From sequence record PQ666539: DNA of 64,000 nucleotides, one strand, 5' to 3'. The stretch's first letter is position 1. Each line of letters starts with the position of its first letter. Under the pieces are notes generated by a model. The model did no database searches and was not told the DNA's origin. It saw nothing but the letters and a program-made list of their open reading frames with translations. Both the position numbers and the translations under genes were made by a program. This document shows, piece by piece, positions 59,787-61,329 of this stretch. Source of the DNA: Shigella phage sb1.

Positions 59787-61329
59787 GTAACAATACATAT
59801 CAGCACGTATCAAATGAATCAAAGTATGTTAAATTCGATCCTACTGGATCGAATTTTCCTGGCACTGTTACGACAGTACAGTCTGCATTATCAAAAATAA
59901 GTAATATTGGCGTAAATGGTATTCCTGATGCAACTATGGAAGTTAAAGGAATAGCAATGATTGCGTCAGAACAAGAGGTTTTAGATGGAACTAATAACTC
60001 TAAAATCGTTACACCTGCTACATTAGCAACAAGATTATTGTATCCAAATGCTACTGAAACTAAATACGGTTTAACGCGTTATTCAACAAATGAAGAAACT
60101 TTAAAAGGCTCAGATAATAATTCGTCGATAACTCCACAAAAATTGAAATACCACACTGACGATGTATTCAAAAACAGGTATTCATCTGAATCATCAAACG
60201 GGGTTATTAAAATATCATCTACACCTGCGGCTTTGGCTGGTGTAGATGATACTACTGCGATGACTCCGCTAAAAACCAAAAACTTGCAATAAAATTAATT
60301 TCGCAAATAGCTCCTTCAGAAGACACAGCATCAGAATCGGTGAGAGGAGTAGTTCAATTATCTACTGTTGCACAAATTCGTCAAGGAACTCTCCGCGAAG
60401 GATATGCAATTTCTCCGTATACCTTTATGAATTCTGTTGCAACACATGAATATAGGGGTGTTATACGTCTAGGAACACAAACTGAAATTAATAATAATTT
60501 AGGCGGTGTTGCAGTAACAGGTGAAACACTAAATGGTCGAGGAGCTACCGGTTCTATGCGTGGAGTAGTTAAATTAACGACGCAAGCCGGTATTGCCCCT
60601 GAAGGTGATAGCTCTGGAGCATTAGCATGGAACGCAGATGTAATTAATACACGCGGTGGACAAACTATTAATGGTTCTTTAAATTTAGACCATCTTACAG
60701 CAAATGGAATTTGGTCACGCGGTGGAATGTGGAAAAATGGCGATCAACCTGTTGCCACTGAAAGATATGCGTCCGAAAGGGTTCCAGTTGGAACTATTAT
60801 GATGTTTGCGGGTGATTCAGCACCTACAGGTTGGATTATGTGTCATGGTGGAACCGTGTCAGGTGACCAATTTCCTGATTATAGAAACGTAGTTGGATCG
60901 AGATTTGGTGGTGATTGGAATAATCATGGTATTCCTGATATGCGAGGTCTTTTCGTCAGAGGAGCCGGTACTTGCGGTCATATTTTAAATCAACGAGGAC
61001 AAGATGGTTATGGAAAGGATAGACTTGGTGTAGGATGTGACGGAATGCATGTTGTTGGTGTCCAGGCACAACAAATGTCATACCATAAACACGCCGGTGG
61101 TTGGGGAGAATATAACAGAAGTGAAGGCCCATTTGGCGCGTCAGTTTATCAAGGATATCTTGGAACTAGAAAATATTCCGACTGGGATAATGCTTCATAC
61201 TTCACTAATGATGGATTTGAATTAGGTGTACCGAGAGATGCTCATGGTACACTTAATCGTGAAGGATTAATTGGTTATGAAACTAGACCATGGAATATAT
61301 CATTAAACTATATTATTAAAATTCATTAA
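59783..61329 (+). pseudogene. 12: Short tail fibre gp12, disrupted by a frameshift near 60270..60292
   Basis: Track ORFs 59783..60292 and 60340..61329 are in different frames; the second frame read upstream gives KLAIKLISQIAPSEDTASESVRGVV overlapping the first ORF end PLKTKNLQ-stop; shift lies in an A-rich run. Confidence 0.75.

Follow-up and report, generated by a model that had tools for sequence, protein, structure and literature searches.

The short tail fibre protein gp12 of phage T4 is a structural protein of the tail baseplate, which carries 6 trimeric fibres of it (PMC3004832, where the structural roles of gp5, gp6, gp9, gp10, and gp12 are reviewed). Its gene stands in the order 11, 12, wac, and the protein (PDB 5iv5, 1pdi, and 1ocy) combines the gp12-short_mid, Collar, and S_tail_recep_bd domains. 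Within Tequatrovirus, the gp12 proteins of Escherichia phage Killian (OQ446694) and of UGKSEcP2, PBM-1, EPIMAM01, and ZCEC15 are each encoded by an intact ORF of 516 aa, with CCC at the position discussed below. The locus considered here lies in a stretch of 64,000 nucleotides from Shigella phage sb1 (PQ666539; hereafter, the window), which spans the early-to-late junction in a Tequatrovirus, a T4-like phage, with genes 2, 4, 53, 5, 5.1, 5.4, 6, 7, 8, 9, 10, 11, 12, wac, and 13 following one another on the + strand (45859-63761). The gene map was derived from the annotation of the closest record, Killian, which is 97.1% identical over 45784-64000; with this annotation mapped onto the window, gene 12 is flanked by gene 11 and wac within the block of baseplate genes, as it is in T4, and its product carries the same 3 domains. 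Unlike in T4 and the relatives named above, however, a 1-nt deletion breaks the ORF, and the last sense codon of the gene has become a stop (Table 1). The frameshift is very probably a lesion that never faced selection, in a sequence laden with errors or damage, namely the private loss of one C from what would otherwise be an ordinary Tequatrovirus gene 12. Throughout, a site is called private when all fetched relatives agree and the window differs (5 relatives for positions 1-46000 and 7 for 46000-64000).

Table 1. Features of gene 12, other gene-breaking defects, private indels, and the tRNA cluster in the window.
Feature	Position	Strand	Remark
Gene 12, N-terminal ORF (169 aa)	59783-60292	+	Premature TAA at 60290-60292 produced by the frameshift
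Gene 12, C-terminal part (350 codons)	60277-61329	+	-1 frame relative to the N-terminal part
Two-frame overlap zone	60250-60292	+	Bounded by TGA 60247-49 and TAA 60290-92
1-nt deletion site	60275-60277	+	A-CC-A in the window, A-CCC-A in 6/7 relatives; Sfk20 ACG CAA
Gene 12, last sense codon to stop	61327-61329	+	TAC>TAA, Tyr516*; private C>A
Gene 5, in-frame TAA	49212-49214	+	GAA>TAA, E486*; private G>T/C>A class vs 7 relatives
Gene 6, in-frame TAA	50418-50420	+	GAA>TAA, E35*; private G>T/C>A class vs 7 relatives
Gene 9, in-frame TAA	57107-57109	+	GAA>TAA, E218*; private G>T/C>A class vs 7 relatives
Gene 10, in-frame TAA	58189-58191	+	TCA>TAA, S290*; private G>T/C>A class vs 7 relatives
Single-stop genes vs sb2	3349-3738, 3992-5632, 12557-13027, 13024-14841, 20696-21586	-	
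Single-stop genes vs sb2, continued	21594-21995, 22051-22578, 25599-26120, 37622-38236	-	
Single-stop genes vs sb2, continued	38278-38871, 39501-39764, 40694-41167, 45222-45752	-	
Private -C	23823		Frameshifts gene 23043-24010
Private -T	24449		Frameshifts gene 24126-25135 (nucleotidyltransferase homologue)
Private +C	34389		Just upstream of ORF 33799-34386
tRNA cluster (10 genes)	41561-42388	-	Arg-tct, Asn, Tyr, Met, Thr, Ser-tga, Pro, Gly, Leu-taa, Gln

As written, gene 12 is not one uninterrupted ORF, a frameshift at 60275-77 being followed by a stop at 60290-92. The N-terminal ORF ends with ...MTPLKTKNLQ before the TAA (...GCG ATG ACT CCG CTA AAA ACC AAA AAC TTG CAA TAA), and the C-terminal frame, which is open from 60250 (the preceding TGA lies at 60247-49) and runs to 61329, is translated across the junction as ...DDSAKNQKLAIKLISQIAPSEDTASESVR...; a -1 shift could join the 2 frames only within 60250-60292. 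Residues 1-165 of the N-terminal ORF align with residues 1-165 of T4 gp12, and the C-terminal part carries the gp12 middle, collar, and receptor-binding domains (PF09089, 1.4e-46; PF07484, 1.4e-16; PF14928, 1.9e-32). Addition of one C yields a protein of 515 aa which is identical to Killian gp12 at 508 of 516 positions (97.7% nucleotide identity across the gene) and residues 1-514 of which align with residues 1-525 of T4 gp12 (PDB 5iv5_O; E = 3.1e-201). Once the C is restored, the protein is colinear with T4 gp12 over its full length, with a common junction motif, DDTTAMTPLKTQ(K/Q)LAIKLI, and with the HKH motif of the window aligned with the Zn-binding His445/His447 of T4 gp12. Unlike in T4 gp12, 5 conserved Pro or Gly residues in the C-terminal half of the window protein are substituted as a result of G>T/C>A changes, and 6 of the 8 amino acid differences from Killian gp12 (P349T, P382H, G398C, G425V, G483V, and Y516*) belong to the layer of unselected changes described below. 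The gene is also one codon short, ending in ...IKIH where the relatives have ...IKIHY. The locus belongs to the T4 gp12 family as an ordinary member; it has the coding potential of gp12 but is broken as written. The first-pass annotation had recognized a short tail fibre gene 12 split by a frameshift; the Pfam domains and the alignment with T4 gp12 bear out this identity, the shift amounts to 1 nt, and we found the N-terminal ORF ending PLKTKNLQ-stop at the same coordinates (60290..60292) and the C-terminal frame overlapping the same DNA, as it had described.

Alignment of the whole gene with 7 relatives revealed a single uncompensated indel. At this place, AAAAA-CC-AAAAAC in the window corresponds to AAAAA-CCC-AAAAAC in 6 of the 7 relatives and to AAAAA-CGC-AAAAAC in the seventh, Shigella phage Sfk20 (junction DNA: window, AAAAACCAAAAAC; L001-L006, AAAAACCCAAAAAC; L007, AAAAACGCAAAAAC). 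The intact codons of the relatives, ACC (or ACG) CAA AAA CTT GCA, specify T-Q-K-L-A, with T-Q-Q-L-A in T4; the third base of the Thr codon varies synonymously between C and G, and this is thus a normally selected codon in the relatives. Judged from the alignment, the base lost from the window is one C:G pair of the CCC run and not an A. The earlier annotation had placed the lesion inside an A-rich run and proposed that a base gained or lost there would make the gene continuous; a gain of one base does restore it, but the missing base is a C and maps to the C-run between two A5 runs, outside either of them.

The split is not shared by other phages. Each of the 40 best phage records spans 1547 bases against 1546 bases of the query, and exactly one net extra base is present in all 57 junction-spanning records from a sample spread over the 684 matching records (96% down to 71% identity, with T4, RB32, RB51, and RB68 included), so that 97/97 listed phage records across the junction carry one base more than the window, with a short tail fibre CDS annotated over the region. 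The two-frame arrangement is absent from all 97 of these listed relatives, and each of the 7 fetched relatives has a single gp12 ORF of 516 aa. Identity to the best phage record is no higher than 97.7% over gene 12 and about 97% over longer stretches, and look-ups of identical proteins for the gp12 N-terminal ORF and for gp13 returned none. Exact searches with the window junction returned no match for a 34-mer in viral, metagenome, and genome contigs or for a 30-mer in viral contigs. As to the positive controls, an intact-junction 30-mer gave 3 matches; a first control, an intact-junction 35-mer, gave none in viral contigs.

Gene 12 is not the only gene affected. In-frame TAA codons interrupt genes 5, 6, 9, and 10 (Table 1), and within positions 1-46000, 18 of 89 genes are broken by comparison with phage sb2, 13 of them by single in-frame stops, which arose mostly through GAA>TAA, TCA>TAA, and TAC>TAA codon changes. 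The early and middle genes broken by stops include rpbA, gene 46 (exonuclease subunit 2), nrdG, nrdD, and gene 3 (tail tube terminator). Private indels number 4 in the 64 kb; all are single-base changes in runs of at most 3, and 3 of the 4 involve C. The frameshift in gene 12 is therefore one of about 20 random-looking gene-breaking defects in the window, for which reason the split is most likely a fault of the sequence. Genes 3, 5, 6, 9, 10, 12, and 46 are classical essential genes of T4. A phage with stops or frameshifts in approximately 20 genes, including essential ones, could not replicate, which implies that the lesions post-date the last round of replication.

Several features of the window and of its relatives were noted alongside. 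Divergence from Killian is far greater in the middle of wac (61741-62685) than on either side, with many compensated small gaps and an intact frame (485 aa), which looks like ordinary mosaicism of a coiled-coil region. Two intergenic T-runs, at 56414 (between genes 8 and 9) and 62825 (between wac and 13), differ in length from Killian by 1 nt; because some relatives have the same run lengths, neither difference counts as private. Flaws of annotation or assembly also occur among the public relatives: in the Sfk20 record (MW341595; L007/L010), CDS calls are lacking for genes 5, 5.1, 5.4, and 11 and are shortened for genes 6 and 8, and in KNP5 (NC_055713; L012) nrdD is annotated as 2 CDS.

The private substitutions carry a distinct signature. 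G>T/C>A changes account for 219 of 490 (106 versus 113, i.e., equal on both strands), corresponding to about 1% of G/C positions; each of the sixteen 4-kb bins contains some, and they occur at rates of 0.58-1.65% across trinucleotide contexts, with no strong preference. At coding sites, they comprise 8.7% synonymous, 82% nonsynonymous, and 9.2% nonsense changes (17 stops), as against 8.6%, 78.9%, and 12.5%, respectively, expected at random coding G/C sites, and no difference from random was detected (binomial p = 0.90 for synonymous and 0.22 for nonsense changes). Private transitions, by contrast, are 78% synonymous and 22% nonsynonymous with no nonsense changes, where 33%, 64.5%, and 2.3% would be expected at random. 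Given that the G>T/C>A spectrum is random and the transitions are mostly synonymous, the window combines 2 layers, ordinary evolved divergence and changes that never passed through selection. The deletion in gene 12 is assigned to the latter, because it is private, lies in an essential gene, and is one of only 4 private indels, 3 of which involve C.

The lesion in gene 12, its privacy, and the absence of selection are observed directly. As to its origin, one C would have been lost from the ACC-CAA (Thr-Gln) codons as part of a genome-wide load of about 219 G:C>T:A transversions and 4 single-base indels in 64 kb, which breaks roughly 20 genes by stops or frameshifts, and the errors may have entered through damage to the template, through a consensus built at low depth or from a single molecule, or through a corrupted record. 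Two familiar error types were compared with this load. The first-pass annotation had offered a homopolymer indel, typical of sequencing error. Sequencing error does stand as a leading explanation, but the homopolymer rationale misfits: errors of the 454, Ion Torrent, or nanopore type are rejected by the presence of only 4 private indels in 64 kb, in runs of at most 3, despite the many A/T runs, and indel-prone platforms are unlikely since indels are so few. The second type is the library artefact caused by 8-oxoguanine, which produces C>A/G>T changes with a CCG>CAG context preference and at low allele fraction (Costello et al. 2013, PMC3616734). The window resembles it in the C>A/G>T excess (219/490) and the strand symmetry. 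By contrast, the textbook context is missing, the CCG rate of 0.92% being close to the mean of about 1% and within the 0.58-1.65% range, and the changes sit in the consensus sequence, which artefacts of this type, being of low allele fraction, normally should not enter.

Alternatively, the record could be accurate and the sequenced molecule or population could truly have had the C deletion, the phage being defective, freshly mutated, or complemented by co-infecting wild type. No statistical tie to the substitution process can be made for a single indel, and the deletion might in principle have arisen separately, as a genuine mutation; it is clean and falls within a short run of C, a place where slippage during replication is possible, and the rarity of indels (4 in 64 kb) indicates that the platform was not indel-prone. 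We nevertheless regard a genuine mutation as unlikely. In T4, gp12 is a structural protein of the baseplate (PMC3004832), the same genome would need nonsense codons in genes 3, 5, 6, 9, 10, and 46 and in nrdD as well, the class of lesions shows no purifying selection, and the deletion is found in no other record searched (97 listed phage records and the k-mer searches of contigs).

Another explanation is that the lesions are real DNA damage, with massive oxidation of guanine having produced about 1% G:C-to-T:A changes and rare C losses in one or a few templates that were then sequenced. The damage might have been environmental or have occurred inside the host. The evidence excludes selection after the damage; as a whole, this explanation has a slim chance of being correct.

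Rescue of gp12 by programmed -1 ribosomal frameshifting, whereby a slip on C-AAA-AAC (60277-60283) would yield full-length gp12 (...PLKTKNLAIKL...), is hardly credible. The frames overlap over 60250-60292, so a slip there would give the full-length protein, the A-site codon AAC can re-pair as AAA, and A-rich sites such as A-AAA-AAG of dnaX are used for -1 frameshifting in bacteria. Both this site and G-T G-GGA-AAG of phage lambda resemble the window in having an A-rich stretch within the overlap of the 0 and -1 frames. Unlike them, the window has no canonical heptamer, stimulatory structure, or conservation; known -1 sites give 2 products in a conserved arrangement, whereas the shift in gene 12 would serve a sole, essential product. 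In the 0 frame of the overlap zone, the only candidates for an X-XXY-YYZ heptamer are A-AAA-ACC and C-AAA-AAC, neither of which fits, and on the latter the P-site Lys tRNA would need to re-pair on CAA. The 117 nt downstream have no significant RNA structure (MFE -22.9 kcal/mol, z = -1.12; 30 of 200 shuffled sequences fold at least as well), and all 97 listed relatives are in frame, with the arrangement present in none. Since gp12 is structural and forms 6 trimeric fibres per baseplate (PMC3004832), frameshifting would have to be nearly complete. Moreover, a private 1-nt loss in a heavily damaged sequence accounts for the site, and the nonsense codons of other essential genes would stay unexplained.

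Transcriptional slippage as a rescue mechanism is of negligible probability. RNA polymerase would add an A in an A5 run and thereby restore the frame in a fraction of mRNAs; the lesion is indeed flanked by two such runs, and an extra A in the second would give TKKLA. However, in bacteria, runs of at least about 8-9 A/T are required for such slippage to be productive, compared with 5 here, no relative conserves the arrangement, and the genome-wide context of lesions speaks against it. The possibility raised in the earlier annotation, that the site is one of programmed or mutational slippage, was thus not upheld, given the lack of a canonical heptamer, of significant downstream structure, and of any relative sharing the arrangement. 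A suppressor tRNA or stop reassignment was rejected, there being no suppressor among the 10 tRNAs of the cluster at 41561-42388 (- strand) and TAA serving also as a normal terminator (e.g., in genes 10, 12, and wac). Separately, an extra tRNA-His lies between the Arg and Asn tRNAs in Ec_YwIITB1 and UGKSEcP2, and the window has no tRNA-His at this place.

An unselected lesion thus remains the preferred explanation of the frameshift in gene 12, and the main value of the result is in quality control; a biological feature is not supported. Taken at face value, the record would be annotated with gene 12 in two pieces and with truncated versions of genes 3, 5, 6, 9, 10, 46, and nrdD, which would invite false claims of pseudogenes, recoding, and programmed frameshifting. 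A reference-based test, in which private substitutions are split by class and their synonymous, nonsynonymous, and nonsense spectrum is compared with random, separates real divergence from unselected noise in this window. Detection in virions of a gp12 peptide spanning the junction as ...MTPLKTKNLAIK... would contradict the artefact reading, and if oxidative damage were the true cause, the frameshift would be one scar of in vivo oxidative hypermutation. The actual phage almost certainly produces gp12 as one normal chain of 516 aa.
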